Shown here in pieces: positions 21,014-38,874 of a stretch of DNA of 64,000 nucleotides. Positions within the stretch are counted from its first letter, which is position 1; each line of letters begins with the position of its first letter. The DNA comes from Sedimentisphaerales bacterium (GTDB taxonomy: Bacteria > Planctomycetota > Phycisphaerae > Sedimentisphaerales > UBA12454): assembly GCA_049518795.1 (NCBI GenBank), contig JBEKRK010000001.1:583506-647505 (forward strand). Direction: 5' to 3'. The notes under the pieces were generated by a model. It was given only the letters and a program-made list of their open reading frames with translations. It made no database searches and was not told the DNA's origin. The translations under genes and the position numbers were made by a program.

Positions 21014-22057
21014 ATGGAAATCACAGACAATCTAAATATTGTGCAGTTTAAGTCGCTGATAACGCCTGAGCAGCTTAAGGAGAAATACCCGCCGACGGAC
21101 GAAACCTCGCATCTGGCGGCACAGGCCCGCAGGGATATACAGGCAATCCTGACAAACAGAGACAAAAGACGCATCGTCATCGCAGGCCCCTGTTCACTGC
21201 ACGACAGTAAAGCCTCATTCGATTACGCCGCCCGGCTGAAAAAACTTCAGGACAAATTTCAGCAAAAGCTCCTGATTATAATGCGGACGTATTTTGAAAA
21301 GCCGCGAACATCTATCGGCTGGAAAGGAATGATTTACGACCCGTTCCTTGACGGCTCGTATGATATTGAAGAAGGTCTTACACGTGCTCGTGATATTTTG
21401 CTTGAAATAAGCAAAACCGGCCTGCCCTGCGCGACTGAATTTCTGGACCCAATTGTGCCTCAGTATCTTGCCGATTTGATTTCTTGGGCCGCTATCGGGG
21501 CAAGAACAACTGAATCGCAAATACATCGTCAAATGGCCAGCGGCCTGTCAATGCCGATAGGTTTTAAAAACTCAACTGATGGAAATCTCATCTCTGCCGT
21601 TGATGCGGTTAAAGCTGCCGCAAGTCCTCATTCGTTTCTGGGCATCAGCCGAACCGGCCAGGTTATTATCGCTGAAACACGCGGCAATAAATATGGCCAT
21701 TTGGTTATGAGAGGCGGAATGGACTGCCCAAATTATGCCGCCGAATATGTCGCCTTCGCAGGCGTTCTGCTGCAAAAAGCAGGTATCGGCAATGGTCTTA
21801 TCATTGATTGCAGTCACGCCAATTCTGATAAGAACTATCGTCTTCAGCGAAAAGCTTTTATTGATGTGGCTGGGCAAGTTAAATCCGGAACAACACTGAT
21901 TGCCGGCGTAATGCTCGAAAGTTTTATAGTCGCAGGAAACCAAAAGCCCGCAAAACCGCAGACACTTACTTACGGCCAGTCTGTCACAGACGGTTGTATC
22001 GGCTGGGAAGAAACGGAAGAGCTAATCGACATATTTGCCGATGCGGTAAGATTATAA
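21014..22057 (+). CDS. 3-deoxy-7-phosphoheptulonate (DAHP) synthase, class I-alpha (AroF/G/H type)
   Basis: GPCSLHD, YFEKPRT.IGWKG, IGARTTESQ.HR, GFKN, DCSHANS and YGQSVTDGCI. Confidence 0.95.
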   Translation: MEITDNLNIVQFKSLITPEQLKEKYPPTDETSHLAAQARRDIQAILTNRDKRRIVIAGPCSLHDSKASFDYAARLKKLQDKFQQKLLIIMRTYFEKPRTSIGWKGMIYDPFLDGSYDIEEGLTRARDILLEISKTGLPCATEFLDPIVPQYLADLISWAAIGARTTESQIHRQMASGLSMPIGFKNSTDGNLISAVDAVKAAASPHSFLGISRTGQVIIAETRGNKYGHLVMRGGMDCPNYAAEYVAFAGVLLQKAGIGNGLIIDCSHANSDKNYRLQRKAFIDVAGQVKSGTTLIAGVMLESFIVAGNQKPAKPQTLTYGQSVTDGCIGWEETEELIDIFADAVRL

Positions 22058-23076: not shown

Positions 23077-24582
23077 ATGTTAGACGATACAAAAGCCACA
23101 AGACACACAACGGCAGAGTCAATCGCAAATACTTTTGAATGGCTCATCACCGCCTTTATTCTCGCGTTTGTATTCAGGGCGTTTATTCTCGAAGCCTTTC
23201 GCATACCGACCGGCAGTATGGCTGATACGCTGATGGGCGACCATTTCAGAATCTGCTGCACACAATGCGGCTACAGCTACGAATACAATTTCAATCCTTA
23301 TATACAGAAAAATTACCAGGTCCGCACCGACCCAGGCCTTTACCAATTGATGCCTTCGCCAAGATGCCCAAGCTGCGGCTATTACGAAAATCCCAACACG
23401 CTTGTTCCCAAGTCCAACGGCGACAGGATTCTCGTTTTTAAAAGTCTCTACCAGTTTACTGAGCCAAAAAGATGGGACGTAATCGTCTTCAAAAATCCCA
23501 TTGACCCCAGGGAAAACTACATAAAGAGACTTATCGCAAAGCCCGGCGAAACGCTCGAAATAATCGACGGCGATATATATATAAATAATGTTCTTCAAAG
23601 AAAACCGCCGAAGGTGCAGCAGGAAATGTGGATGTGTATTTACAATAATGATTATCAGCCGATACGTCCAACGGAAGGCAGATTCAACAATCATCAATGG
23701 CAGCAGCCGTTCACAAATGATAAAGATTCTCAATGGAAATATAATCCCTCAAAGCCGACGGAATTTACACTCGAAAGCAGCTCTGAAAAACCTCAAATAA
23801 TGTTTTATAACACGTCAAAGGGCAATAACTTTAGAGCGGTCTATGCTTATGGCGACCCGCGATTTTATCGCGATATACCCTTCTGCAGCGACCTGATGAT
23901 GAACTATTACGCAAAATTCAAAGGCGATAACGATACAGTTGGTATCGGTCTAACTAAATATGAAACGCTATATAAGGCTCAGGTAAATTCACTTGGCATA
24001 ATGATAATTGAAAAGGTTGATTCAGCCGGCAAGTCAGTTGAGCTTGCCCGCAGAGAAATTTTACCGCCGGGGCAAAACAAAAGTTTTTTTGTCCAATTTG
24101 CTAATGTTGACCATCAGCTTATTTTTGAAATTGACGGCCAAAAGCTTACTTGCGACCTCGGCACCGGCAAAGATGATGCCGGTCAGCGGCGAAGCGAGAT
24201 AGAGCCAAAGGCTTTTATTTTCGGTGCAGGCAATTTATCACTGCTGCACGTTGCCTTATACCGCGATATACATTATCTTGGAATTCGGCCTGATTCTCAT
24301 CAACCAGTCGACCGGGCAGGCGAAAATAATCCTTTTACACTCGGAAAAGATGAGTTTTTCGCTATGGGCGATAACAGTCCTGACAGCCTCGACTCACGCC
24401 TGTGGAGTACCGAAGGCATCGGAAATAACGGCTATACTTACAGGATGGGCATAGTTCCACGTGATTATCTCGTCGGCAAAGCCTTTTTTGTCTATTGGCC
24501 AAGCGGTTTTCGTGTGGACGCATCCAGATTAGCTCTTGTTCCAAATGTAGGCCGGATGAGATTCATTTACGGGGGAATATAA
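23077..24582 (+). CDS. lepB: Signal peptidase I with large insertions
   Basis: FRIPTGSMADTL (Ser), YIKRLI (Lys), MGDNSPDSLDSR (box E); Cys-pair insert CTQCG...CPSCG. Confidence 0.9.
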   Translation: MLDDTKATRHTTAESIANTFEWLITAFILAFVFRAFILEAFRIPTGSMADTLMGDHFRICCTQCGYSYEYNFNPYIQKNYQVRTDPGLYQLMPSPRCPSCGYYENPNTLVPKSNGDRILVFKSLYQFTEPKRWDVIVFKNPIDPRENYIKRLIAKPGETLEIIDGDIYINNVLQRKPPKVQQEMWMCIYNNDYQPIRPTEGRFNNHQWQQPFTNDKDSQWKYNPSKPTEFTLESSSEKPQIMFYNTSKGNNFRAVYAYGDPRFYRDIPFCSDLMMNYYAKFKGDNDTVGIGLTKYETLYKAQVNSLGIMIIEKVDSAGKSVELARREILPPGQNKSFFVQFANVDHQLIFEIDGQKLTCDLGTGKDDAGQRRSEIEPKAFIFGAGNLSLLHVALYRDIHYLGIRPDSHQPVDRAGENNPFTLGKDEFFAMGDNSPDSLDSRLWSTEGIGNNGYTYRMGIVPRDYLVGKAFFVYWPSGFRVDASRLALVPNVGRMRFIYGGI

Positions 24583-24611
24583 GAGGTATTGATTTTGAAG
24601 TTTCGCTTTTG

Positions 24612-26246
24612 TTAAGCTGAAACCGGTGTCAGATGACGGCTTATAACCTTAACAAGATTATTTTTGTCAGTTGTTTTTGAGATATATTCGTCACAGCCGG
24701 CGGAAAGGCTTTGCTTCCTTTCGTCCTCTTCTATATCGGAAGTTATCACTATTATTGGTGTTTCCACTCTAAAGCTTCGCAACCTTTTCACAGCGGCAAA
24801 GTCGTTCATCTCCGGCATCTGCACATCCATAAAAATCAATTCAAAATGCTGCTTTTTAACTGCTTCGATTGCTTCGAGCCCATTGGCTGCAAGCGTTACG
24901 ACAAAGCCCAATTCTTCAAGTAGCGTCTTTATCGATGCCTGGCTCGGCCGGCAGTCTTCAGCAACAAGCACTCTACCGGAAAACTCGACCCGCAGATTAT
25001 CCTGTCCGGCCGCAAGCTCTTCATCAGATATTTCGTTTTGTTCGTTTTCGACCGTATTCAGCGGTATGGTAAGTCTGAATATTGAGCCTTTTGACAGTTC
25101 GCTCTCGACGCTTATATCTCCTCCCATCAGAACTGCGATTTGTTTTGTTATTGTCAATCCCAGTCCTGTCCCGCCATATTTGCGCGTCATACTGCCGTCC
25201 GCCTGAGTAAACGCCTCAAAAATAGCATTGAGTTTTTCTGCCGGTATTCCAATACCCGTATCAAAAACTGCAAATTCTAAAAACGGTTTGCCGTCCTTTT
25301 CTATTTGCTGAGCTGTAACTTTAACATATCCCTGTTCAGTGAATTTTAAGGCATTACTTACAAGATTAAAGAGACACTGCCGCAGTTTCACGAGGTCTGT
25401 AATGATCATATGCGGCACATTGTCTGCACACTCAACTATGAACTGGAGCTGTTTATTTCTCGCGGTAGGCATCATCAGCGATTCGACATTAGCCAATACA
25501 GCCCTTATGTTACATTCAATATTCTCTGTCTCCATCTGGCCGGCCTCGATTTTTGAAAAATCAAGAATATCGTTAATCAGTTGCAGCAGATGTTTGCCGC
25601 TGTCAAGAATCATTTTTATGTATTCTTTTTGCTGCAGCGCCAACGGTTCTGCTGTAAGGACTTCGCTGAAGCCGATGATGGCATTCATAGGTGTTCTTAT
25701 TTCATGACTTATATTGGCCAGGAACTGACTTTTAGCAGCATTGGCTCTTTCAGCCTCGGCGGCCATTTCTTTTGCGGTTGTTGTAGCCTTAATCAGTCTT
25801 GCGTTTATATGTTCAAGCTCATTTTTCGTTTCAATGAGGCCGGCTTTTGTTTTTCTCCTTTCAATAGCATATCTTATTGTCCGCACTAAGGTATATTCAA
25901 GTCCCTCACCTTTTATCAGGTAATCTTCAGCGCCGTTGCGTATGGCCTCAAGACCCATATTCTCGTCGTTAAGCCCTGTAAGCACGACGATAGGAATATC
26001 AGGAACAGCATCGAAAACCCTTTGTACGGTTTCCATTCCCCTGCTGTCGGGAAGATTTAAATCGAGAAGAATAACGTCATATTTATTATTGGCAAGTTTT
26101 TCAAGAGATTCTGTAATTGTCTGCGCAGAATCTCCTTTGAACTTTACCAGATTAGCCGCCTTTGTCAGGACAATATCGACAAGCTTTCTGTCCAGTTCGT
26201 CATCGTCAACTACTAATACATTTACTGACTTGTCTGTCTGGCTCAT
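24612..26246 (-). CDS. Cytoplasmic hybrid histidine kinase (REC-HisKA-HATPase-REC)
   Basis: N-terminal receiver (LLDLNLPD), FLANISHEIRTPMN, NLVSNALKFT, DTGIGI, GGTGLGL; C-terminal receiver (FMDVQMP). Confidence 0.93.
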   Translation of the reverse strand: MSQTDKSVNVLVVDDDELDRKLVDIVLTKAANLVKFKGDSAQTITESLEKLANNKYDVILLDLNLPDSRGMETVQRVFDAVPDIPIVVLTGLNDENMGLEAIRNGAEDYLIKGEGLEYTLVRTIRYAIERRKTKAGLIETKNELEHINARLIKATTTAKEMAAEAERANAAKSQFLANISHEIRTPMNAIIGFSEVLTAEPLALQQKEYIKMILDSGKHLLQLINDILDFSKIEAGQMETENIECNIRAVLANVESLMMPTARNKQLQFIVECADNVPHMIITDLVKLRQCLFNLVSNALKFTEQGYVKVTAQQIEKDGKPFLEFAVFDTGIGIPAEKLNAIFEAFTQADGSMTRKYGGTGLGLTITKQIAVLMGGDISVESELSKGSIFRLTIPLNTVENEQNEISDEELAAGQDNLRVEFSGRVLVAEDCRPSQASIKTLLEELGFVVTLAANGLEAIEAVKKQHFELIFMDVQMPEMNDFAAVKRLRSFRVETPIIVITSDIEEDERKQSLSAGCDEYISKTTDKNNLVKVISRHLTPVSA

Positions 26247-26682
26247 AACTTGAACGCCTGCAAATGGTAAACCAATAATCTGTTAAGGTTTGCATTACTT
26301 CCTGAAAATCGGTGAGACTTACAGGTTTTTTGATATATCCGGCGGCCTGTAATCTGAAACTTTCGAGAATGTCCTTATCGGAATCGCTCGTAGTGAGGAT
26401 AACGACAGGTATTGCCTCAAATTGCGGGTCGGCTTTTATCTGTCTGAGGAATTCCTTGCCTCCCATACCGGGCATATTCAAATCAAGCAGAATAAGGTCC
26501 GGCAGAATATCCTTATTTTCCGGCGTCTTATTCTTTTTGAGGTAGCATAGAGCTTCTTCAGCACTGGATAATACCACAGGAATATTGGAAAGTCTTTGTT
26601 CCTTAAGCGACATTCTTATAAGTTTTTGGTCACCAAGGTCATCCTCTATCAGCATTATCGTAACCGGTTTATAGATATCCAT
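26206..26682 (-). CDS. Single-domain response regulator (Rcp1-like)
   Basis: IEDD, LILLDLNMPGMGG, VILTTSDS, AAGYIKKP. ATG at 26682 chosen from its GGGGA RBS (track start 26727). Confidence 0.9.
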   Translation of the reverse strand: MDIYKPVTIMLIEDDLGDQKLIRMSLKEQRLSNIPVVLSSAEEALCYLKKNKTPENKDILPDLILLDLNMPGMGGKEFLRQIKADPQFEAIPVVILTTSDSDKDILESFRLQAAGYIKKPVSLTDFQEVMQTLTDYWFTICRRSSYEPDRQVSKCISS

Positions 26683-26723
26683 TTTAAGTTCCCCATCAAA
26701 TTGATAAACTTCATTGCCGCCAA

Positions 26724-27167
26724 TCAAACTTTCACTACCGCTGAAGCTAAAAACCAGTAGCGGGTCATTTTTTTAACCACCTCATTAAACTCTTCCGGCA
26801 CAGCGGACTTCTGTATATATCCCGCTGCCTGTAAACGATAGCAGTCCTGGACATCGGTTTCCGAATCTGAGGTTGTAACCACAACAACTGGAATAGCACA
26901 CAATTCGTCATCTGCCTTGATTTCCCTTAAGAATTCCTTGCCGCCCATTCCCGGCATATTCAAATCAAGAAGTATTAAACAAGGCTTTTGATATTGTTCC
27001 GGAGCTTCTTTGCACATTTGAAGATAACTCATTGCTGCTTCTCCGGCAGGTGAAATCATTAGTTTCACACCATATTCCTGGTTCATAATTGCCGCTTTAA
27101 TCAGCTTTTGATCTCCAGGGTCATCCTCAATAATGAGAATCAGCAGTTCTTTTTTATCGCTTACCAT
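26724..27167 (-). CDS. Single-domain response regulator (Rcp1-like)
   Basis: IEDD, LILLDLNMPGMGG, VVTTSDS, AAGYIQKS. ATG at 27167 chosen from its AAGGGGG RBS (track start 27206). Confidence 0.9.
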   Translation of the reverse strand: MVSDKKELLILIIEDDPGDQKLIKAAIMNQEYGVKLMISPAGEAAMSYLQMCKEAPEQYQKPCLILLDLNMPGMGGKEFLREIKADDELCAIPVVVVTTSDSETDVQDCYRLQAAGYIQKSAVPEEFNEVVKKMTRYWFLASAVVKV

Positions 27168-27405
27168 ATCAGCCCCCTTATTCTCACAAATCTTTAACTT
27201 CTCCATAGCTGTGATTGCAGTCCATCCGTCGCCGGTTCAGTTTTAACCGACACCGTAAATAAAAATTGGACTTCTGTTGGGACTCAGATATTAAAACTAT
27301 TATCATTTTCACTTATTATTATCGAAAAATTCCGCACATTACTGAACATTCCCCAAACTTGTCTTATAAATTGTCCAATATTGCACGATTAACCCTATTT
27401 ACTTT

Positions 27406-29739
27406 TTAAAAATATTTATTACCGGACTTGTCTGCTACCCCATCCTTATTCTCTGCCGCAGCAACAGCTGATTTTTCTGCGATGGGCATTGTGAACCAGA
27501 ACGTAGAGCCTTTATCCGGCTGAGATTCGACACCGATTTTCCCGCCGTGACGCTCCACTATTTTCTTGCATACTGCAAGACCAATGCCTGTTCCCTCATA
27601 TTCATCACGCGAATGCAGGCGTTTGAACATTGTAAATATCGCACCCTGAAATTCCGGCTTAATACCTATACCATTATCTGTAACTTCTATCCTGACCATA
27701 CCATCAGACGCGGGCTTGCTTGTTATGATTATACGTGGAATATTGCCCTTCTTCTGATACTTGACGCCGTTTGCGATAAGGTTCTGCATAAGCTGTCTAA
27801 TCTGGGCAGGGTCAGCCTCAACACAGGGCAGCGATTGTGACTCGATAGTTACCTGTTTCTCTTCAATCAGCACGGCAAGTTCGAGCTGCTGCAGTTGTGT
27901 GACTATCTCATTAAGATCGACACCTTGCGAAGGGTGCGCCTGTGTGCTTACTCTCGAATAAACAAGAAGTCCTTCTATCATCTTTGTCATTCGCTGCGCG
28001 CCATCTATCATAAACTTAAGATTTTCAGCATCATCACCTGCAAGTTTGCCTTTGAGCGAGCTTCCCAGCATAGCGCCAAAAGCGGTAATCTTCCGCAATG
28101 GCTCACGCAAATCATGCGATGCTATATAGACAAAATTCTTCATCTCCTTATTGGTCTCTTCAAGCTCTGCTACGGTGTTTTCAAGGTCCCGATTGAGCCT
28201 CTTCATCATTTCTTCTGCCTCTTTCTGGCGGGTAATATCTATATCTGAGCCTCTGTAGCCGACAAGATTACCATCAATATCAAGTATAGGCACTCCGCTT
28301 GTTATCAACCATACAATCCGGCCGTCTTTGTGCACATTCGCATTCAGAAACCCCTTGAAAGACTGTTTTTCTGCAAACGCTGCGAATGCTGATTTTTTTA
28401 ATTCGTCTCTCTCTTTATCTGTAAACAGGTCGTAGAAATATTTTTTGCCGACAATTTCCTCCGGCCTATAGCCGAGCAGGTCTATAACGATAGAACTTGA
28501 ATAAGTATATAATCCATTCGCGTCAACTTCCCATACCCATTCGGAAGCATTGCTGACAATTTCCTGGAACCTTTTTTCGCTCTCCCTAAGATTGCCCTCT
28601 ATCTTCTTGCGCTCGCCAATTTCATTAATTAAGGAATTACGCGAAACTGTTGTTCTGTTTAAGTTCTCAACCATCTGATTGAAACTCGCAGCCAACTGCC
28701 CTATTTCACTCCGTGATTCAACTTCTATTCTTGTATCCATCCTGCCTTCGCCAATCTTTATGGCAGCGTCTCGTAAATCTATTATCGGTTTTGTCAGTCT
28801 TTTTGACAGATAAACGCCGGCTATGATAGCTAAGGTAAAACTCAGAAGTATCGTAAATGCCGTCAGTTTAATCGCCGTAATGACAGGTTGGTATGCCTCA
28901 CGGACTGGCAGCTCAACCACAACCGCCCAGTCAGGCATACCAAGCGGCGCATAACTGCTTACCACATAATTACCCTGAATACCCTTTGCTATACCGGCCT
29001 CATCGGAGACAGGAGATTTGTCGCTGCCTGTAAATTCAGACACCTCCCCTATATAGGCTAAATTCTCTCCCTTCAAAATGCGGCTGATATCGTCAAAAGC
29101 TATTAAATCCCCCTGTCTGTCAACCACATAAGCCAGGCCTGTTTTGCCAACTTTTATTGAACCCACTAAATCCCACATAAATTTCAGGTTCACCTCGGCC
29201 AGCAACACACCTCTAAAGTCGCGGAAAACATCCATAATCGGAACAGCCATTATTACCATAGGCTCGCTTGTTATTTCATCTATATATACCGAGCTGATAT
29301 ACATTTTGCCCTGATTTGTTTGAGAAAACAGTTCACTCTTTTTTTGCCCTGTTAATTTAATTGACAGTAAACTTGATAAACGAGAATCTCTCATCAATTC
29401 CTGTTCCTGCGAGTCAAACATAACCAGCTGGCGAAAGGCCGGTTCCAAACCCAGCAATTTTTCCAGAACTAATTTTTGCTCCTGCCCTGAAAAAGCTGTC
29501 AGATTGCCAAGGCCGGCCGCCGTTCTTAACATGTCAAATTCCCTCTGAATAAAACTCTTTACAGTATTGGCCGCCTCCTTGGCAACAAGCTGCTGCTGAC
29601 TGGCAATAATATGACGTTGGGTCTTGAAGTTAAAATATATCTGCAGGCTATTAGCAATCAGCAGGACTACCGCACTCAAAGCTAAAAAAGCAATGGCTAA
29701 TGTAACGGTCAAACTACGAAATTTTTTTATTTTTACCAT
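27406..29739 (-). CDS. Membrane sensor histidine kinase (Cache-HAMP-PAS-HisKA-HATPase)
   Basis: Two TM helices around a Cache-like region (YISSVY..., [14 protein letters not shown]), HAMP ([13 protein letters not shown]), PAS ([11 protein letters not shown]...DIT), [11 protein letters not shown] and GTGIGLA. Confidence 0.92.
27488..28179. repeat. 692-bp near-identical duplicated kinase core, copy 1
   Basis: Matches 34511-35202 with one synonymous mismatch seen (27541 C vs 34564 T). Confidence 0.95.
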
Positions 29740-29754
29740 TCCGAATCTCGATAC

Positions 29755-30771
29755 TTAACGAATTATTTCACCTGCCCTGCTTAATAAACCTTCAGGCACA
29801 TTCAGCCCCAGTTTCTGGGCCGCTTTGTAATTGAACTGGAAGAAACCTTCGGATGAGACAACCGGGATTGTGCCAGCTGATATACCTTTTAATATTTTGT
29901 CAGCCAGAAACGCAGCCTGTCTGCCTACAGGAATGTTTTGAGGCGTCAATCCAAAAACAGATTCATATCCTCCCACTGACATTAAGGCGCCGCCAATCGG
30001 AATCTTATGTTCATCCGCAAATTTACCCAGCACCACAAAATTTTCAGGCGTCACACCAAGAGGCTCAACCATTATCAGGATAGCATCTGTGTCATTGACA
30101 CCGACTGATTTAGCCCGCTCCTGCAATTCAGCCTCAAGTTCTGTCGCATTATTGGCGGGAACTTCTAACAGCGTTATACCTGAGGATGCAGCCATCGGGC
30201 GCAATATCTCTAACTGGCTGGCTACAATAGGATAACCTCGCTGATAGGGTAGCCACATTCGCTTGGTCTGCGGCACCAACTCGTGCATAATCTCAAAACG
30301 CTTGGCCGCAAGGTCCGGGCCAGGCCAGCGCACACCGGTGATATTCCCGCCCGGATGGCGCACAGTCTCGATCAGATTGGTACCCTCTATATTCGCAATC
30401 GCAAAAACCACTGGGATGTCTGTTCCTTGTGTGGCCGCCTTTGCCTCCTGGGACGCCTCGGTGGGAAACACAAAAATTAAATCAACCTTATCAGCCACAA
30501 ATTTCTTGAGGATGTTCTTGTAGGCAACCAAGTCAATGTTTGTTTTCTGCAGGTCATAGACGACATTTTTGCCCTTGACATAGCCTAACTCGGTCATCCT
30601 GGCTTTGAAGCCGTCCGCTGCACTGGCAAAAAAATCCAGGCCGGACAGAATGCCCACCCGATATACCTTCTGCTGCGGCGCTTTTTTACCACAACTGTTC
30701 AGAAACACACAAAACACAACTAAAAAGGTTGCAAACAGCGTGAGCCATTTGAAACAAATTTTCCTGCACAT
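29755..30771 (-). CDS. ABC_sub_bind (COG2984/TrpX-like) periplasmic binding lipoprotein 1
   Basis: Lipobox FLNSC; VDLIFVFPT, PVVFA, HPGGNITGV and NYKAAQKLGLNVP. Confidence 0.88.
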   Translation of the reverse strand: MCRKICFKWLTLFATFLVVFCVFLNSCGKKAPQQKVYRVGILSGLDFFASAADGFKARMTELGYVKGKNVVYDLQKTNIDLVAYKNILKKFVADKVDLIFVFPTEASQEAKAATQGTDIPVVFAIANIEGTNLIETVRHPGGNITGVRWPGPDLAAKRFEIMHELVPQTKRMWLPYQRGYPIVASQLEILRPMAASSGITLLEVPANNATELEAELQERAKSVGVNDTDAILIMVEPLGVTPENFVVLGKFADEHKIPIGGALMSVGGYESVFGLTPQNIPVGRQAAFLADKILKGISAGTIPVVSSEGFFQFNYKAAQKLGLNVPEGLLSRAGEIIR

Positions 30772-30801
30772 AATTATCTATTACCTTTCTTTCAATAACG
30801 T

Positions 30802-31809
30802 CTAACGAATTATTTCATCTGCCTTGCTTAATAAACCTTCAGGAACATTCAATCCCAGTTCCTGAATTACCTTGTAGTTCAGCCGCAGATGAGCTTCAGG
30901 TGTAACCACCGGGATTGTACCGGCAGGCATACCCTTGAGAATTTTGTCAACCAGAGACGCCGCCAGCTTACCCTGTTCAACATTGTCAGGAACAAAACTA
31001 AACATAGCCCCCAAGTCCGCGGTAAAGTCCATTCCGCCGCCGATTGGGATTTTGTGCTTGGCCGCAAAATCGTGAATTGCCCCAAAACCGTCAGGTGAAT
31101 TATTAAGAATATCCGGCATAATCAATATTGCATCAATACCTATATCGTTTGCTTCGTCACGTTTTTTCAAAGCCGCACGAAGCTCATCCAAATTATTTAC
31201 AGGCTCTTCCACCAGCGTGATATTCGCAGCCGAGGCCGCTGAATGCAATCCCTCAAGTGCGCTTGACGCATTAGGATAATTCCGGTCGTATGCCAATAAA
31301 ACTCGTTTTGTTTGAGGCACCAGCTCACACAAGAACTCAAAACGCTTAACCGTCAACTCCGGCCCAGGAAAGCGAACACCGGTAATATTTCCACCCGGCT
31401 GGCGCACGGTATTTATGAGGTTATTTCCTTCTATTCCGGCCATAGCAAAAACTACTGGAATATTAGTCCCCTCAGCAATTGCCTTGGCTGTTACGGCCGT
31501 CTCGGTTGGAAATGCGAAAATTAAATCAACTTTATCTTTAACAAATTCCTTAACGACTCGTTTTTCCTCCTCAGGGTTTGCGTTCACTTTCTGAAAGTCA
31601 TAAACAATGTTTTTACCCTCTATATAGCCTAATTCAGCCATTTTGGTTTTGAGGCCGTCTGCTATATTGGCAAAAGGTTCTGCTCCGGATACGATGCCCA
31701 CGTGACAAATTTTCGGCCTTTTGCTGCAGTTAGTCAAAAATATACAAGACATAATTAACATTGTCAGGGATACTATTTGCAAAAATTTAATTTTTTTGCA
31801 TATCTTCAT
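30802..31809 (-). CDS. ABC_sub_bind periplasmic binding lipoprotein 2
   Basis: Lipobox-like FLTNC; VDLIFAFPT, QPGGNITGV and LNYKVIQELGLNVP. Confidence 0.88.
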   Translation of the reverse strand: MKICKKIKFLQIVSLTMLIMSCIFLTNCSKRPKICHVGIVSGAEPFANIADGLKTKMAELGYIEGKNIVYDFQKVNANPEEEKRVVKEFVKDKVDLIFAFPTETAVTAKAIAEGTNIPVVFAMAGIEGNNLINTVRQPGGNITGVRFPGPELTVKRFEFLCELVPQTKRVLLAYDRNYPNASSALEGLHSAASAANITLVEEPVNNLDELRAALKKRDEANDIGIDAILIMPDILNNSPDGFGAIHDFAAKHKIPIGGGMDFTADLGAMFSFVPDNVEQGKLAASLVDKILKGMPAGTIPVVTPEAHLRLNYKVIQELGLNVPEGLLSKADEIIR

Positions 31810-31824
31810 CTTAATGTCTTTCTT

Positions 31825-32823
31825 TTAACGAATAATTTCATCTGCCCTGCTTAATAAGCCTTCAGGCACATTCAGTCCCAGTTTCTGGGCCGCTTTGTAA
31901 TTGAACTGGAAGAAACCTTCGGATGAGACAACAGGAATTGTGCCTGCCGGAATACCTTTCAGGATTTTGTCAGCAAGAATCGCAGCCTGCCTGCCTGTGC
32001 TGTCAAGATTAACATTTATGCCAAAAACAGAGTCATAACCATCTACCGACATTAAGGCGCCGCCGACGAGAATTTTATGTTCAGCGGCAAATTTACCGAA
32101 CACCGCAAAAGCGTCAGCTGTCACGCCAAGAGGTTCGGCAATTATCAGCATAGCATCTATACCGATGTCAGCCGATTTAGCTCTTGCCTGCAAATCAGCC
32201 TGAACTTCTGCTGCATTGGAGGCGGGGCATTCTACCAAAGTTACACCTGCAGCCTCGGCCATCGGATACAACACTCTCAACTGGCTGGATACAATAGGGT
32301 AACCTCGCTGATAGGGTATCCATATTCGCTTAATCTGCGGTGCTAACTCACGCATAATCTCAAATCGCTTGGCCGCAAGGTCGGGGCCGGGGTAACGAAC
32401 GCCGGTGATATTGCCGCCCGGCCGGCGAATACTCTCAACCAGATTAGTGTCTTCTATGTTGGCAAAAGCAAAAAGCACAGGAATGTTTGTCCCCTGCGCG
32501 GCCTTCTTGGCAGCCATTGATACCTCGGTGGGAAACGTAAAAATAAGGTCAACTTTGTCTTTTACGAATTGCTTAAGGATTTGTTCTTCCCTGGCAGGTT
32601 CAAAGTTCGTCCTCTGTATGTCATAAACGATGTTTTTCCCCTCAATGTAACTTAAGTCGGTCATCCTGGCTTTGAAACTATCCGGTATAGCGGCAATATA
32701 ATCCAGCCCGCATAGAATACCCACTCGATATACCTTCTGCTGTGTCGCTTTTTTGCCGCAGCTGCTTAAAAGCAGACAAAATATAATTAAATAGAACGCA
32801 ATATTTTTTATTTTTGTTTTCAT
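31825..32823 (-). CDS. ABC_sub_bind periplasmic binding lipoprotein 3
   Basis: Lipobox LLSSC; VDLIFTFPT, RPGGNITGV and NYKAAQKLGLNVP. Confidence 0.88.
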   Translation of the reverse strand: MKTKIKNIAFYLIIFCLLLSSCGKKATQQKVYRVGILCGLDYIAAIPDSFKARMTDLSYIEGKNIVYDIQRTNFEPAREEQILKQFVKDKVDLIFTFPTEVSMAAKKAAQGTNIPVLFAFANIEDTNLVESIRRPGGNITGVRYPGPDLAAKRFEIMRELAPQIKRIWIPYQRGYPIVSSQLRVLYPMAEAAGVTLVECPASNAAEVQADLQARAKSADIGIDAMLIIAEPLGVTADAFAVFGKFAAEHKILVGGALMSVDGYDSVFGINVNLDSTGRQAAILADKILKGIPAGTIPVVSSEGFFQFNYKAAQKLGLNVPEGLLSRADEIIR

Positions 32824-32835
32824 AACGGTATTCCC

Positions 32836-34269
32836 TTAAAAGGTATATTCGATTGAAATTTGACTAAAATAAGCCGGGTCTCTGTCCGGTTCGGCATAAT
32901 AATTGCCCGGCACAAAATATTCGAACTGATAATAAGCTAAAAGATTCTTTGTAACGTTATATTTAAGTAATAACGAGAATAATTGGCCTCTGAATTTTCC
33001 GCCGCTCGACCAGCTCGGCCCGCCTGGATTAGTGGTTCCGCCAAGAGGATTTTCATTGGCAAACAGCAGGTGATAATCTGTGCTAATCTGGATTTTATCG
33101 GTGGGACAGAAAGAATGGCCCAGATTCAATCTTGCAAGGTTTGTGCTTGCCCCGGGTCCATTCTCATACCAATAAGCATAAGTATTTATCACACTCCATT
33201 GCGGCCACTTCCCCCAGAGGTTATCGAACCCTTCGTTTCTGCCTGAGCCGGGCTTGTCTCCGGAAAGGTATTCGAAAGTTCCGTGAAGCACATTTTTGTA
33301 TTTATCGTTGAAATGATATTCAAGCGTGTCTATGGTTCCGAACGCCCGCAGGCTGTGGCCATCTTTATTGCCGGTCTGCACTGCGCCTTCGGCCCTGTAT
33401 TTCCAGTGCTCGCTCTTGAAAAGCGGGCCTGAAAGTGCCCCGCCTAATGTATAAATTTCATCTCCTACGGAACCAGATGCGACAGGAGTATCGTGTTTAT
33501 AAATAAAATAACCTTCGAGCTGCAGATTGGGACGGGATTTATCCGTATAATAAACTATTGCTCCTGTCTGGTCTGTATTATTTACAAGTTTATGTCCATC
33601 TGAAAACGGCCTTAGCCACGCCGAAGAATCGGCCTTCTGGTCTATAAAAATCAAATCGAGCGTTTTATCTTTTTGCAATTCATAGGTAAAACGCAGTGCG
33701 TCGAAAAATATTGTTCTTCCTTCGTCATTATTTGTTCCTTCAAGAACAAGCCAGCCTGTTCCGAAGATGATGTCCTGGCGGCCCACAACCATCGTCAGGG
33801 GCATACCGCCGAGATTTCGGACGGTAAGATTAAACCTGTCCCAAACGATTTCATCGAAATCAACCTCTTTTTGGCGGCTGTCAGGCCCATCCCAGGTTCT
33901 GAATTCCCAAACCCATCTGTGATTAAATTCGATGTCATCTGTGATTTTCGTTTTGGTTCCCCATCTGAACCTGTTTAGAGTGTAATTCCAATTGCTCAAT
34001 CCTGAATCGTCGTTGAACCTGTCAATGTTCCATGCGTTGAACCACTGCCATTTCAAGTCAGCCTCCATACTAAGCCAGGGAGTCGGATTATGGAACCAGT
34101 CGATAAATTTATCCATTCCATTTTTATTTTCTCCGGCGGGCTGAGACGATATTAACTGTTCTACTTTTTGTGATGCCTGCTGTGTAGCTTCCTGAGCAGC
34201 AGCAATTGCCGCAAAAAGTATCACAGCCGATGCAATAAACACATAAATTTTCGGCATATTATGCACCAT
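32836..34269 (-). CDS. Alginate-export (AlgE-like) outer-membrane beta-barrel porin
   Basis: Signal peptide, alternating beta-strand pattern, VGRQDIIFGTGWLV, FEYLSGD and terminal Phe (IEYTF). Confidence 0.75.
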   Translation of the reverse strand: MVHNMPKIYVFIASAVILFAAIAAAQEATQQASQKVEQLISSQPAGENKNGMDKFIDWFHNPTPWLSMEADLKWQWFNAWNIDRFNDDSGLSNWNYTLNRFRWGTKTKITDDIEFNHRWVWEFRTWDGPDSRQKEVDFDEIVWDRFNLTVRNLGGMPLTMVVGRQDIIFGTGWLVLEGTNNDEGRTIFFDALRFTYELQKDKTLDLIFIDQKADSSAWLRPFSDGHKLVNNTDQTGAIVYYTDKSRPNLQLEGYFIYKHDTPVASGSVGDEIYTLGGALSGPLFKSEHWKYRAEGAVQTGNKDGHSLRAFGTIDTLEYHFNDKYKNVLHGTFEYLSGDKPGSGRNEGFDNLWGKWPQWSVINTYAYWYENGPGASTNLARLNLGHSFCPTDKIQISTDYHLLFANENPLGGTTNPGGPSWSSGGKFRGQLFSLLLKYNVTKNLLAYYQFEYFVPGNYYAEPDRDPAYFSQISIEYTF

Positions 34270-34449
34270 TGTTTCTCCTATTTTTTAATCCGTTAAAATA
34301 GGATGCTTTTTGCGCAAATCTACTTGCATACATTCTTTAGGAATAATCGACATAAATAAAATGGGGATTGATTCAACAGTATCTATACACACAAAAACAA
34401 TTGGAATTGAAGCCAGATTAAATATTATCGGTCGTTTTTGACGGTCAAT

Positions 34450-37400
34450 TTATGAACTATATGAAGTTTGAACTATATTCTTATCAGCTGTTACTGCTTT
34501 AGTTTCCGGTATTGTGAACCAGAACGTAGAGCCTTTATCCGGCTGAGATTCGACACCGATTTTTCCGCCGTGACGCTCCACTATTTTCTTGCATACTGCA
34601 AGACCAATGCCTGTTCCCTCATATTCATCACGCGAATGCAGGCGTTTGAACATTGTAAATATCGCACCCTGAAATTCCGGCTTAATACCTATACCATTAT
34701 CTGTAACTTCTATCCTGACCATACCATCAGACGCGGGCTTGCTTGTTATGATTATACGTGGAATATTGCCCTTCTTCTGATACTTGACGCCGTTTGCGAT
34801 AAGGTTCTGCATAAGCTGTCTAATCTGGGCAGGGTCAGCCTCAACACAGGGCAGCGATTGTGACTCGATAGTTACCTGTTTCTCTTCAATCAGCACGGCA
34901 AGTTCGAGCTGCTGCAGTTGTGTGACTATCTCATTAAGATCGACACCTTGCGAAGGGTGCGCCTGTGTGCTTACTCTCGAATAAACAAGAAGTCCTTCTA
35001 TCATCTTTGTCATTCGCTGCGCGCCATCTATCATAAACTTAAGATTTTCAGCATCATCACCTGCAAGTTTGCCTTTGAGCGAGCTTCCCAGCATAGCGCC
35101 AAAAGCGGTAATCTTCCGCAATGGCTCACGCAAATCATGCGATGCTATATAGACAAAATTCTTCATCTCCTTATTGGTCTCTTCAAGCTCTGCTACGGTG
35201 TTCCGCATCTCTTCGTTGAGTTTTTTCAGTTTCTCCTCTGCCTTCTTGCGATCGGTGACGTTGCGGAATATCCCCATCACATATTCGGTTTGGTTGATAG
35301 TCACCGTACTTGCGTTTATGCTCACGGATATTACCTGGCCGTCCTTCCTTACGCACGGCAGGTCCGCGGTTATCTTGGTCCCTGAGGCTTGAGCCTCGAA
35401 CTCGGCGATCACCTGCTCGAGCGCCTCTTTCGGGTGGATATCGGCCACGCTCATCCGCGTAAGTTCCTCCTCGCTGTAGCCCAGCATCCTGCATATCGCC
35501 GGGTTGGCGTATCTGAACTTCTTTGTCGTGACATCGGCTATGAGTATCCCATCAATGTTCGCCTTAAACAGACTCTTGTATCGCTCCTCGCTCTCCCGCA
35601 GCGCCTCTTCCGCCCGCTTGCGCTCGGTGATGTCCTGGCCTTGGGCAATGATGGCCACAGCAGTTTTGCCGTCTGGCGCGAAGATCGTGGCAGAGTTCCA
35701 GAGGACGGTACTGACAGAGCCGTCGATATGCAGGATGCTGATCTCTACGGCCTTCCATCGTTCGCCGGTCAGTGTCTTCCGGATGATATTCATCGTGTTT
35801 TCCACGAGGGCCGGCGGGAAGAGAAGATCGAGAGGCTTGCCGATAACATCGCCGGCCTTTCTTCCGGTGAGGGACTCGAAGGCATGGTTGAACTGGCTGA
35901 TCCGGAATTGCGGATCCCAGACGATAATGGGGGCATTCGCATAGGTGATGAGGTTCTGGAGGTACGCGGTGGTCTCCCGCAATGCCTCCTCCGCCTGCTT
36001 GCGCTCAGTGATGTCGCGGAATATCCCCATCATACATTCGGTTTGGCCTATTGTCATCGTACCTGCGTTTATGCTCACGAATATCACCTGGCCGTCCTTC
36101 CTTACGCACGGCAAGTCCTTTGAGGTTATCTTGGCCCCGGAAACTCGGGCTTCGAAATCGGCGGACGCCTGCTCGAGCGACTCTTTCGGGTGGATGTCGG
36201 CCAAGCCCAACCGCGTAAATTCCTCCTCGCTGTAGCCCAGCATCCTGCACATCGCCGGGTTGGCGTACCTGAACTTCTTTGTCGTGGGATCGGCTATGAG
36301 TATCCCGTCAATGTTCGCCTTAAACAGACTCTTGTATCGCTCCTCGCTCTCCCGCAGCGCCTCTTCCGCTCTCTTGCTCTCGGTGATGTCGCGGAAAATT
36401 CCCATCGTTCCTGCTGGATTGTCTTTGTCATCTTTAACAATAGAGACAGTTAATAAAACAGTAAATTTTTCCTTATTTTTCCTAATACAGATTGTTTCTC
36501 CCGACCATTTGCCTTTATTTTTTACCTCCTCTACAATATTATTTGCATCTTTTGGATCTGCTGTAAATTGAGATACTTTTAATTTTAGTATCTCCTCGTG
36601 CGAATAACCAAAGACCTTAATAGAAGACTCATTGGCATTAGTAACATTGCCGTTTATATCAGTCAGTATAAAGCTATCGTAAGCATTTTGAACAGCGTTT
36701 GAGAATATTTTTATCTTCTCCTCCGTCTCCTTGCGCTCGGTGATGTCTATAAATATACCGTTTGCATATTTTATGCCGTTCTCTTCATAAACCGACATTG
36801 CTCTATCGCGCAGCCAAATCCACTTTCCATCTTTTCTCTTGATCCGATATTCAATGTCAAACAAATCTTCTTTTTCGAATAATGCTGTAAAACTCTTTTT
36901 CGTCCTTTCTATGTCATCAGGATGAATCCTGCCAAACCAAATTTCATTTCCGCCTTCAAATATTTCCTCAGGCGTATATCCATAAATTTTCTTTACATTT
37001 TGACTTATAAAGACGGTTCTGCCCTTTAGGTCAGTCGTCCAAACCACATCTGGAATATTTTGCACCAAGGAACGATATTTTCCCTCTGATTCTTTTAAGA
37101 TCGCCTCCATCTTCTTGCGTTCGGTGATGTCCCAGAAAATGCCTAATATTCCTATGACGTTTCCTTGCTCATCTTTGATAGGTGTCTTGACTGTTTGGAC
37201 AATAAATTCCTTTCCTTCCCGAATATATTTCTCCTCGACTTCTTCTGCTTTTCCGGATTCCATAATTCTTTTGTCGTCAGCTTTGTATTTCTCAGCCAAT
37301 TCCGTTGGGTAAAATTCGTAGTCTGTTTTTCCAACGATTTCCTCGGCCTTAATCTTTAAAGCTCTGGCGTAATTCTCATTGCAGGAAAGGTAAACAGAGT

Positions 37401-37485
37401 TTCCATCTTTAAGAAATATGTTCTGAGGCAGGTTATCAAGTAGCGTTCTGTATATATTTTCATCACCCCGCAACTTCTGTATCAT
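34450..37485 (-). CDS. Cytoplasmic multi-PAS sensor histidine kinase
   Basis: About six PAS/PAC units ending in DIT(E/D)R-like motifs, then the same [11 protein letters not shown]...GTGIGLA core as 27406-29739. Confidence 0.93.
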   Translation of the reverse strand: MIQKLRGDENIYRTLLDNLPQNIFLKDGNSVYLSCNENYARALKIKAEEIVGKTDYEFYPTELAEKYKADDKRIMESGKAEEVEEKYIREGKEFIVQTVKTPIKDEQGNVIGILGIFWDITERKKMEAILKESEGKYRSLVQNIPDVVWTTDLKGRTVFISQNVKKIYGYTPEEIFEGGNEIWFGRIHPDDIERTKKSFTALFEKEDLFDIEYRIKRKDGKWIWLRDRAMSVYEENGIKYANGIFIDITERKETEEKIKIFSNAVQNAYDSFILTDINGNVTNANESSIKVFGYSHEEILKLKVSQFTADPKDANNIVEEVKNKGKWSGETICIRKNKEKFTVLLTVSIVKDDKDNPAGTMGIFRDITESKRAEEALRESEERYKSLFKANIDGILIADPTTKKFRYANPAMCRMLGYSEEEFTRLGLADIHPKESLEQASADFEARVSGAKITSKDLPCVRKDGQVIFVSINAGTMTIGQTECMMGIFRDITERKQAEEALRETTAYLQNLITYANAPIIVWDPQFRISQFNHAFESLTGRKAGDVIGKPLDLLFPPALVENTMNIIRKTLTGERWKAVEISILHIDGSVSTVLWNSATIFAPDGKTAVAIIAQGQDITERKRAEEALRESEERYKSLFKANIDGILIADVTTKKFRYANPAICRMLGYSEEELTRMSVADIHPKEALEQVIAEFEAQASGTKITADLPCVRKDGQVISVSINASTVTINQTEYVMGIFRNVTDRKKAEEKLKKLNEEMRNTVAELEETNKEMKNFVYIASHDLREPLRKITAFGAMLGSSLKGKLAGDDAENLKFMIDGAQRMTKMIEGLLVYSRVSTQAHPSQGVDLNEIVTQLQQLELAVLIEEKQVTIESQSLPCVEADPAQIRQLMQNLIANGVKYQKKGNIPRIIITSKPASDGMVRIEVTDNGIGIKPEFQGAIFTMFKRLHSRDEYEGTGIGLAVCKKIVERHGGKIGVESQPDKGSTFWFTIPETKAVTADKNIVQTSYSS
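34511..35202. repeat. 692-bp near-identical duplicated kinase core, copy 2
   Basis: Matches 27488-28179 at an offset of 7023. Confidence 0.95.
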
Positions 37486-37728
37486 TTTAATTCCCTTTAA
37501 TCATTAAACTCATTCATGAATTCCACTTGGAAGCAGCTCTCTCGACTGTATCTATGAAAATCGGCAGAAATAAGTCGGTAATTGAAGAAATAGTACTTTT
37601 TCAAAAAAAATGACCCGAAATCGACATCCGTCAAATAATTATCGGTCGTTAGCAAACGTGTTTACAAAGATGGGATTTTTTTGCACAAACCTCTTGCCAG
37701 ATTGATTTGCCGGATTATATTGGAATCT

Positions 37729-38874
37729 ATGCTTACCACTGCAAAACCAGACACGTTTGAAAAGCTCGAAATTCTAAGCCGTGATTCGCAGTATGACCTT
37801 ACCTGCGCCTGCGGCACCGATAAATCCGGACATCGGACACGGGGAAACAACGGCAAATGGATTTATCCGGTAACTCTTCCCAACGGCGGCAGCACTATTC
37901 TGTTCAAAACGCTTATTTCAAATGTCTGTTCGAGCGATTGCAAATACTGTCCCCTTCGACAGGATGCCGACGTTTCGCGATGCACGCTTAATTGTGAAGA
38001 AACTGTCAGGACATTTATGGATTATTACAACAGAGGCGAGGTCTTCGGCCTGTTTCTTTCCAGCAGCGTCCTCGGCTCGGCTGATGCAACAATGGAAAAA
38101 TTGATTGCTCCCGCTGAAGTCCTTCGTAAAAAGTATGGATTCAGGGGCTATATTCACCTGAAAGTCCTGCCAGGCTCAAGCCCTGCCGCTATAGAAAAAG
38201 CAGTTTCAGTTGCCAATGCCGTTTCGCTGAATATCGAAACGCCGGGAAAGGAATTTCTCAAAAAATTGTCGAATAAAAAAGATTTTTTAAAGGATATTGT
38301 CGAGCCTATGAAACTTATCAGCCGGCTTACCAGCCAGAGTTGCCGAAGAGTTAAACAAACCACCCAGTTTATCGTTGGTGCCGCCAGCGAAACCGACAGG
38401 CAAATTGTCGATTACACAGCCGCACTTTATAACAGGCTCAACCTAAGCAGGGTTTATTTTTCAGCCTACCAGCACCCCAATCCGGAAGTAAACATCGATT
38501 CCCAGCAATCATTTATTCGGGAACACAGGTTATATCAGGTTGATTTTCTGCTCCGTAAATATGGATTTGAGCAGTCTGATATTGTATGCGACAGTTTAGG
38601 TCTCCTTTCAACAGAAAAAGACCCAAAAGAAGTCTGGGCTATAAATCATCCGGAATGTTTCCCTATAAGTGTAAACACAGCAACTAAATACAAGCTGTTA
38701 CGCGTGCCGGGGCTTGGCCCTAAAGCAGTTGAAACTATACTAAATAAGAGAAAATTAGCAAAAATTAATTCAATTGACGATATTGATAAAGTAACGAAAA
38801 ACCTGCTAAAAGCCGTAAAATACCTCGATTTTGGCGGCATCACTAAAAATAAGAGATATTTGTTCAATTTTTAA
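37729..38874 (+). CDS. Putative DNA modification/repair radical SAM protein with HhH motif (TIGR03916-like)
   Basis: NVCSSDCKYC (CX3CX2C), GLFLSSSV, GYIHLKVLPG, RVYFSAY, REHRLYQVDFLLRKYGF and LLRVPGLG. Likely ATG at 37729 (track start TTG 37681). Confidence 0.88.
   Translation: MLTTAKPDTFEKLEILSRDSQYDLTCACGTDKSGHRTRGNNGKWIYPVTLPNGGSTILFKTLISNVCSSDCKYCPLRQDADVSRCTLNCEETVRTFMDYYNRGEVFGLFLSSSVLGSADATMEKLIAPAEVLRKKYGFRGYIHLKVLPGSSPAAIEKAVSVANAVSLNIETPGKEFLKKLSNKKDFLKDIVEPMKLISRLTSQSCRRVKQTTQFIVGAASETDRQIVDYTAALYNRLNLSRVYFSAYQHPNPEVNIDSQQSFIREHRLYQVDFLLRKYGFEQSDIVCDSLGLLSTEKDPKEVWAINHPECFPISVNTATKYKLLRVPGLGPKAVETILNKRKLAKINSIDDIDKVTKNLLKAVKYLDFGGITKNKRYLFNF

Follow-up and report, generated by a model that had tools for sequence, protein, structure and literature searches.

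The 64,000-nucleotide (nt) stretch of DNA analysed here (the window; positions 583,506 to 647,505 of the forward strand of contig JBEKRK010000001.1, GenBank assembly GCA_049518795.1, from a Sedimentisphaerales bacterium) contains a block of eight genes that includes an outer-membrane porin, three substrate-binding proteins (SBPs) of the family PF04392 and a sensor histidine kinase with a dCache_1 domain, here called the Cache kinase. The three SBPs are most likely detachable ligand sensors for this kinase and not nutrient carriers, because the genome has no transporter for them and because the pairing of such SBPs with such a sensor recurs across bacterial and archaeal phyla. The host is an uncultivated bacterium, whose genome of 2.9 Mb (96.7% complete) originates from a peat metagenome. 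According to the listing of open reading frames (ORFs) and Pfam scans, all eight genes are located on the minus strand, with the same coordinates as in an initial annotation made from the sequence alone. In the direction of transcription, they are (lengths in amino acids, aa; TM, transmembrane helix):

32836..34269, minus strand: porin, AlgE-family outer-membrane beta-barrel, 477 aa (Pfam Alginate_exp PF13372, E = 2e-17)
31825..32823, minus strand: SBP1, PF04392 lipoprotein, 332 aa (Pfam)
30802..31809, minus strand: SBP2, PF04392 lipoprotein, 335 aa (Pfam)
29755..30771, minus strand: SBP3, PF04392 lipoprotein, 338 aa (Pfam)
27406..29739, minus strand: Cache kinase, TM-dCache_1-TM-HAMP-PAS-HisKA-HATPase_c, 777 aa (Pfam)
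26724..27206, minus strand: first receiver, Rcp1-like single-domain REC protein, 160 aa (Pfam and PDB matches)
26206..26727, minus strand: second receiver, single REC domain, at most 173 aa from a TTG start, with an internal Met that may be the true start (Pfam)
24612..26246, minus strand: hybrid kinase REC-HisKA-HATPase_c-REC, 544 aa, without an Hpt domain (Pfam)

The successive gaps from the porin through SBP1, SBP2 and SBP3 to the Cache kinase are 12, 15, 30 and 15 nt. The initial annotation had described the porin, the three binding lipoproteins and the Cache kinase as co-oriented genes separated by 12–30 nt, with two Rcp1-like receivers and a REC-HK-REC hybrid downstream, and the ORF and Pfam results agree with that description. 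The best PDB matches of the first receiver (26724–27206) include Rcp1, RcpA, RcpB and bacteriophytochrome response regulators, with E-values of 1e-18 to 1e-22 (1e-18 to 1e-20 for Rcp1, RcpA and RcpB). The absence of a transporter core and of a DNA-binding output domain, also part of that description, is borne out by Pfam, which detects no ABC permease, no ABC ATPase and no DNA-binding domain inside the eight-gene block.

The genome contains exactly three PF04392 genes, all of them in this block. The canonical PF04392 genes of two other loci (L086 and L082) are followed by a PF02653 (BPD_transp_2) permease and a 269-aa ABC ATPase, and PF02653 is therefore the right probe for a cognate transporter. 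Five PF02653 permeases are present genome-wide, every one beside a binding protein of its own: three are part of sugar operons of the CUT2 type, which also encode Peripla_BP_4 proteins and double ATPases (~500 aa), and the other two make up a Liv-type pair accompanied by a Peripla_BP_6 protein. Comparison of the permeases of canonical PF04392 operons with the host genome by tblastn yielded no match, and the canonical ATPase yielded generic matches only, with at most 34% identity. The initial annotation had allowed that a cognate COG4120/COG1101 permease and ATPase elsewhere in the genome could make use of the SBPs. With the five permeases accounted for and the permease tblastn search empty, no such cognate genes were found in the genome, and this side of the objection falls away.

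The conservation of gene order, which the initial annotation had proposed to survey, was assessed in 72 loci from species-representative genomes and four context loci (L013–L016), in which ORFs were called and searched with the window proteins. The analysis covers the 62 loci with a close SBP, two of which are copies of one contig; 59 are evaluable after exclusion of the 3 loci that are ended by a contig edge. A homologous Cache-HAMP gene (E = 1e-40 to 1e-170) is located directly downstream of the SBP and on the same strand in 53 of the 62 loci, mostly with a gap of less than 100 nt. In 4 more it is adjacent in another orientation, and in 2 it is missing. Adjacency of an SBP and a dCache-HAMP sensor is found in 57 of the 59 evaluable loci from other organisms, and this arrangement is far beyond chance. 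No ABC permease or ATPase occurs within 10 kb in any of the 62 loci; loci where the SBP is only ~30% identical have a permease or ATPase instead (L080, L082, L086 and L088). The hosts belong to Planctomycetota, Spirochaetota, Chloroflexota, Bacillota, Nitrospirota, Ignavibacteriota and Desulfobacterota, to several phyla of the candidate phyla radiation (CPR), and to Methanoregula, Methanolinea and Aenigmatarchaeota. The number of SBP copies per locus is 1 in 39 loci, 2 in 8, 3 in 8, 4 in 2, 5 in 2, 6 in 2 and 8 in 1. In the three contexts that were read directly, one or three SBPs stand immediately ahead of a dCache_1-HAMP protein, and in a reverse check all four proteins picked by sensor-domain similarity alone have one to three PF04392 genes directly upstream.

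Among the full-length partner proteins, dCache_1 is found in 44 of 44 and HAMP in 43 of 44, and the outputs are varied, with HATPase_c in 31/44 and MCPsignal in 5/44; some partners add GAF, PAS or REC domains and several consist of Cache and HAMP only. The linkage of the SBP is to the sensor and not to the output domain. Domains have been shuffled downstream of HAMP but not between the SBP and the sensor, as would be expected of two proteins that cooperate outside the membrane. Across phyla, the sensor region has 36–73% identity and 21 invariant positions, and a search of 1.84 billion representatives assigns 2638 clusters (50% identity) to the sensor family at E ≤ 1e-30.

A different scenario is that the SBPs still supply an unlinked, non-cognate or unassembled transporter, and that the kinase regulates or co-senses uptake in the manner of GltB-GtrS and BctC-BctE. 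The host genome, at 96.7% completeness, is not closed, and certain SBPs perform both transport and signalling according to a review (PMC8050422). However, no PF02653 permease is left unassigned, the tblastn search with cognate-type permeases is empty, and ABC components are absent near all of the 62 related loci yet occur near canonical PF04392 genes. Moreover, the SBPs belong to a clade apart from the transporter-linked members, as described below. We consider this scenario very improbable.

Some loci deviate from the common form of the SBP-sensor pair. In archaeal and other loci (L016:10001–15292, L034:7901–14108 and L117:2846–7293), the PF04392 genes are followed by an output-less Cache-HAMP protein of ~430 aa, which may signal via a neighbouring kinase; in L016, a second pair follows, consisting of an NMT1-family SBP and a dCache-HAMP kinase. 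In a Spirochaetota metagenome-assembled genome (L051:9947–19381), a long run of PF04392 pieces with many short ORFs stands ahead of the Cache kinase and represents either an array decaying into pseudogenes or frameshifts of a long-read assembly. In a genome of the same genus as the host (G003; L023:11996–16094), the Cache-HAMP-PAS ORF ends at 556 aa without a kinase and is followed by a 180-aa ORF and a 578-aa PAS kinase whose core is 85% identical to that in the window, which indicates either a kinase that has been split or frameshifted or a version made of two proteins. In one member of the sensor family (P0371), the sensor is preceded by an N-terminal extension of 226 aa with the sequence ALYRKDLWDEIGIKPDTWDEV..., which may resemble sugar-type binding proteins. 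This protein could be a fusion created by gene calling or a genuine fusion of the sensor with another SBP family; as a Rosetta-stone fusion of the SBP and sensor studied here it was rejected, the extension having no similarity to SBP2.

The three SBPs match PF04392 with 112.7, 146.8 and 127.5 bits (E = 3e-32 to 1e-42; the curated cutoff is 25.9 bits), compared with 306.7 bits for a canonical member, so the proteins of the window are divergent within the family. Each has a lipobox-like Cys (LSSC, LTNC or LNSC), and identity to SBP1 is 69% for SBP3 and 52% for SBP2. By sequence they have the type-I periplasmic binding protein (PBP) fold, with E-values of 3e-23 to 1.5e-14, and are kin of VC_1101, SP1069 and CD0873; the nearest solved relatives of SBP2 are 3LKV, 3LFT and 6HNI. 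SBP2 has thousands of homologues, and the best 120 of these are 59–70% identical and carry the names Phycisphaerae, Sedimentisphaerales, Ratteibacteria, KSB1 and Fibrobacterota.

In a phylogenetic tree of 158 rows, a branch of 143 rows is split with a support of 100 from an outgroup branch of 15 rows, which holds the ABC-linked members and thus the canonical transporter-linked PF04392 genes. The larger branch consists of the 3 SBPs of the window, 125 rows that have a Cache neighbour and 15 rows whose locus gave no match to either Cache or ABC genes (some of which are short or contig-end pieces). SBP1, SBP2 and SBP3 each fall in a subclade of their own, and every one of these subclades also contains orthologues from other genomes, such as those in G017/L015 and L026 for the SBP1 subclade and in L023/G003 for the SBP3 subclade. 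The lipobox Cys is retained by 90% of the Cache-associated clade. The residues F100, E127, P179, F248 and Y312 (SBP2 numbering) are near-invariant and specific to this clade, being missing in the transporter-linked members.

The PF04392 importers TrpXYZ, CD0873, VC_1101 and SP1069 handle aromatic amino acids (PMC6816091, PMC9382623). VC_1101 binds Phe, SP1069 Trp and CD0873 Tyr, and side-chain specificity is set by Ala246 and Tyr262 of VC_1101 (PMC6816091). The equivalents in SBP1, SBP2 and SBP3, mapped by alignment only, are L, M and L for Ala246 and L, N and N for Tyr262. Both specificity positions vary widely across the clade, and the known Glu/Gln variants are not matched by the three SBPs. 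Scores against the TrpX equivalog NF041285 (83.6, 101.4 and 94.3 bits) are far under its 390-bit cutoff. An aromatic amino acid as the ligand, at which the initial annotation had hinted, is unsupported, as the two known specificity positions do not match. The ligands probably differ between the three paralogues, which fits their location in three old subclades and the differences at the specificity positions.

On the side of the sensor, the dCache_1 domain of the Cache kinase occupies aa 45–276 (Pfam), between two TM helices. An AlphaFold2 model of aa 1–370 of the kinase (pLDDT 84.9) has a dCache fold and runs from TM1 through a long helix and a pair of PAS-like modules to TM2 and HAMP.

The porin at the head of the block matches Alginate_exp with 63.5 bits (cutoff 25.2), has a Sec signal peptide and ends in ...EYTF. 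Most of the 423 homologues come from Phycisphaerae and Sedimentisphaerales. No alginate or exopolysaccharide cluster is found around it, its neighbours being SBPs and kinases. The order of porin, SBPs and Cache kinase is the same in the closest relative (85% identity for the sensor and 90% for the porin) and in L023; in L017 (G004) the porin is located after the kinase. In L090 the porin stands beside a lone PF04392 gene, and in one other locus a porin homologue stands beside a Peripla_BP_6 gene. The host genome has three paralogues of the porin. A 42%-identical Alginate_exp paralogue (G000:C3:321983–323332; L115:6984–8333, minus strand) is located directly ahead of pstS-pstC-pstA-pstB-phoU, with a second pstS also there and a PAS/HAMP kinase upstream, and is probably the phosphate channel of the host, from the AlgE barrel family and not OprP. 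A porin followed by a binding protein is a recurring design in this genome, which supports a role as an entry channel, and on these grounds we lean slightly towards the view that the porin of the block is a dedicated entry channel for the ligands. Two further loci (L091:602–8123 and L092:5882–13151) have porin homologues with 46–50% identity, flanked on one side by a small-subunit and SSF symporter pair and on the other by two PaaK-like AMP-binding ligases with an ACT-domain protein after each. Both look like gene clusters for the uptake and activation of an organic acid, which may be an aryl-acetate.

These results lead us to propose that a clade of PF04392 gave up transport and that its members act as ligand-loaded co-receptors of a dedicated dCache_1-HAMP sensor. 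We are fairly confident that the SBPs and the Cache sensor function together, and somewhat less so that docking of a ligand-loaded SBP on the dCache sensor is the mechanism, although we still judge this probable. In the host, a diderm, three old paralogues would be co-produced with one kinase and would converge on that kinase. The AlgE-family porin at the head of the operon would let the ligands through the outer membrane, as its paralogue would at the head of pst. Periplasmic and cytoplasmic inputs would then phosphorylate the same two Rcp1-like receivers, with the N-terminal receiver of the REC-HK-REC hybrid perhaps a further phosphorylation target, and the transcriptional or other output would be located outside the locus. 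The scheme of three receptors signalling through one kinase, put forward in the initial annotation, is strengthened by the linkage in 57 of 59 loci and by old paralogues that differ at the pocket; the SBP-Cache contact that it presupposes is one that we infer.

Several observations weigh against this explanation. The Foldseek neighbours of the modelled sensor are the amino-acid-binding dCache domains of Mlp37, PctB, PctA and Mlp24 (14–19% identity), and the pocket-region residues R120, Y152, D154 and E182 are invariant or nearly so in 43 sensors from many phyla. The sequencing runs that contain the stretch are DNA only, and no transcript support for co-transcription was found. The porin is lacking in most of the module loci, its homologues also occur in unrelated contexts, and the syntenic locus L089 has a porin and a receiver cascade without an SBP or Cache gene.

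The first two of these observations, including the invariance of membrane-distal residues across the 43 sensors, would be consistent with the dCache domain being the true ligand sensor and the lipoproteins being accessories (scavengers or buffers, chaperones, or negative modulators) that do not present the ligand. However, the dCache domain acting on its own would leave unexplained why a transporter-less clade of SBPs stays with the sensor even where the output has changed and in different domains of life, and why one to eight SBP copies accompany a single sensor. The amino-acid motif of PctA (Y121, R126, W128, Y129, Y144 and D173) appears to be only partly kept: in a comparison by eye, R120, Y152 and D154 of the kinase are conserved and the Trp/Tyr positions are S122/S123, so that R-x-W, Y is represented by R120-L-S122. 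We regard the accessory role as unlikely, and the SBPs as presenting the ligand to the sensor remains our preferred explanation.

The observations on the porin would fit a general channel unrelated to sensing that is a neighbour by descent. In L089, the porin stands beside a PAS kinase and the receiver cascade, and the other contexts of its homologues, together with the many module loci without a porin, point in the same direction. Against such an origin, the porin and SBP1 are on the same strand with a gap of 12 nt, the closest relative and G003/L023 have the same gene order, the porin of L090 stands beside a lone PF04392 gene, and the paralogue is directly ahead of PstS. We hold descent alone to be possible but doubtful. 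Monoderms and archaea have the module without a porin, and the porin is a lineage-specific addition outside the pan-phylum core. The initial suggestion of a porin that feeds the receptors is thus supported by the nearest relatives, where the order is kept, and by the pst-linked paralogue, but does not extend to the widely conserved core.

Four further features of the locus concern its expression and history:

34270..34449, minus strand: intergenic leader of 180 nt ahead of the porin, with a sigma-70-like site inside
34450..37485, minus strand: cytoplasmic histidine kinase with six PAS domains (6xPAS kinase), 1011 aa (Pfam)
34511..35202, minus strand: copy A of a 692-bp direct repeat, kinase transmitter core (blastn)
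27488..28179, minus strand: copy B of the 692-bp direct repeat, kinase transmitter core (blastn)

The sigma-70-like site, a consensus match only, is TTGACC-16-AATATT at 34448–34421, ahead of the porin. The spacing of the genes is not uniformly tight, with 180 nt ahead of the porin and 199 nt separating the first receiver from the Cache kinase, and because of these gaps the eight-gene block may consist of two or three transcripts. A terminator scan gave fewer sites than in shuffled sequences and none between genes. No Rfam family matched above noise in 24000–38000, so that no leader RNA or riboswitch hints at the ligand.

The two copies of the direct repeat (27488–28179 and 34511–35202) have 99.86% identity, with 1 mismatch. 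The dimerization/phosphotransfer (DHp) and catalytic (CA) domains that form the transmitter are 100% identical over ~229 aa between the 6xPAS kinase (aa 764–992) and the Cache kinase (aa 523–751) by BLASTP. In the source sample, the Logan unitig of the repeat has a depth of 94 compared to 51 in the flanks, or ~2x, and the duplication is therefore real. Misassembly of the repeat was considered and is unlikely, as the depth is doubled and the graph A-R-B-R-C allows one linear path. A 7-kb circle excised at equal copy number is a formal but improbable alternative. If the two copies recombined, the locus would lose the porin, SBP1 to SBP3 and the Cache sensor, either by deletion or as an excised circle of 7,023 bp. 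In two-component systems, identical DHp/CA modules have identical partner specificity. With identical transmitters, the Cache and 6xPAS kinases should signal to one and the same set of receivers. Neither kinase has a GAF or PHY domain by Pfam. The only two Hpt matches in the genome are on other contigs, and no DNA-binding regulator was found near the block.

The flanks of the locus are syntenic with L089, where radical SAM, KdsB and CTP synthase genes lie to one side and genes for a signal peptidase and a PALP enzyme to the other. The order in L089 is porin, PAS kinase, kinase, REC, REC and hybrid. In the closest relative, the PAS kinase gene is located after the Cache kinase and not ahead of the porin. 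Given that L089 has no SBP or Cache gene, that the position of the PAS kinase differs and that the module is present only in 7 of 41 genomes of the lineage (3 of 6 of the genus), the SBP-Cache cassette is, judging from these gene orders, an accessory input plugged into a pre-existing network of kinase, Rcp1-like receivers and hybrid kinase. The signal peptidase and the PALP enzyme separate the hybrid kinase from a gene for 3-deoxy-D-arabino-heptulosonate 7-phosphate (DAHP) synthase, the first step of aromatic amino-acid synthesis, at positions 21014–22057 of the window, 2.5 kb past the hybrid kinase; nothing supports a link between the DAHP synthase and the sensor.

We also entertain, with our opinion evenly balanced, a broader hypothesis in which this PF04392 branch is wholly out of transport and forms, with one dCache-HAMP sensor, a horizontally mobile plug-in sensing cassette of bacteria, CPR and archaea. 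One to eight interchangeable lipoprotein receptors would compete or cooperate on one transducer, allowing combinatorial integration of ligands, and the Phycisphaerae, which are diderms, would have added a matching outer-membrane pore. If this holds, the 2638 sensor clusters would place the cassette among the largest undescribed SBP-receptor families. Receptor activation mediated by SBPs is thought to be widespread, and to our knowledge the documented cases involve only about a dozen SBP families. The pair described here is large, cleanly delimited and recognisable by sequence alone, and would correct the label "ABC transporter substrate-binding protein" that thousands of genes routinely receive. 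It would make available a naturally occurring case of multiple binding proteins acting on a single dCache receptor, and would supply defined proteins with which to screen for ligands in groups that are poorly known (Phycisphaerae, CPR bacteria and methanogens). The order of porin, SBP and sensor suggests a way in which diderms could couple entry through the outer membrane with periplasmic sensing.

A full-text literature search (PF04392, COG2984, ABC_sub_bind, and orphan SBP with Cache) found no description of a signalling role or of this pairing. PF04392 is not seen in the SBP-receptor table of a 2021 review (PMC8050422) in the part of that source available, and ABC_sub_bind appears nowhere in its text. 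The same review describes LuxP-LuxQ of Vibrio, TorT-TorS, HptA-HptS and AioX-AioS as dedicated binding proteins that activate sensor kinases (PMC8050422). By analogy, the system in the window is of the same functional kind as LuxP-LuxQ, TorT-TorS, HptA-HptS and BasB-BasT, and its combination of SBP family and sensor is new. As in LuxPQ, TorTS, HptAS and AioXS, the SBP gene adjoins the kinase gene (here with a gap of 15 nt), no transporter is involved, and the kinase has an extracytoplasmic ligand-binding domain, which is (d)Cache-like or helical in those systems and dCache_1 here, and on which the SBP would dock. Unlike them, the system described here employs PF04392 SBPs, with three paralogues per receptor (one to eight elsewhere) and a porin gene in the operon.

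BasB-BasT and CosB-CosT of Halobacterium salinarum similarly have a membrane-anchored SBP beside a dCache-like transducer, and extend the comparison to archaea and to methyl-accepting chemotaxis proteins, which make up 5 of the 44 partners here. They differ in the SBP families, Peripla_BP_6 and OpuAC, and in having one SBP per transducer, compared with PF04392 and a kinase output in our case. The SBPs of TrpXYZ, CD0873, VC_1101 and SP1069 are likewise PF04392 lipoproteins with a type-I PBP fold by sequence, whereas the proteins of the window have no permease or ATPase, form a separate clade and have other residues at the Ala246 and Tyr262 positions.

The co-location of an outer-membrane channel gene with a periplasmic binding protein is shared with OprP/OprO-type porins, from which the present case differs in its Alginate_exp barrel and in a downstream partner that is a sensor and not a transporter. 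With AlgE, the porin has the barrel family in common but not the exopolysaccharide gene context. As with Cph1-Rcp1, a single-domain Rcp1-type receiver is present. The kinase transmitter is probably of the Cph1 type, and its H-box is presumably similar to that of Cph1. In contrast to Cph1, there is no PAS-GAF-PHY photosensory core, and the inputs are the dCache domain with the SBPs and the PAS repeats. Among these systems, the one described here is set apart by its arrays of paralogous SBPs, its spread across domains of life and its added porin.

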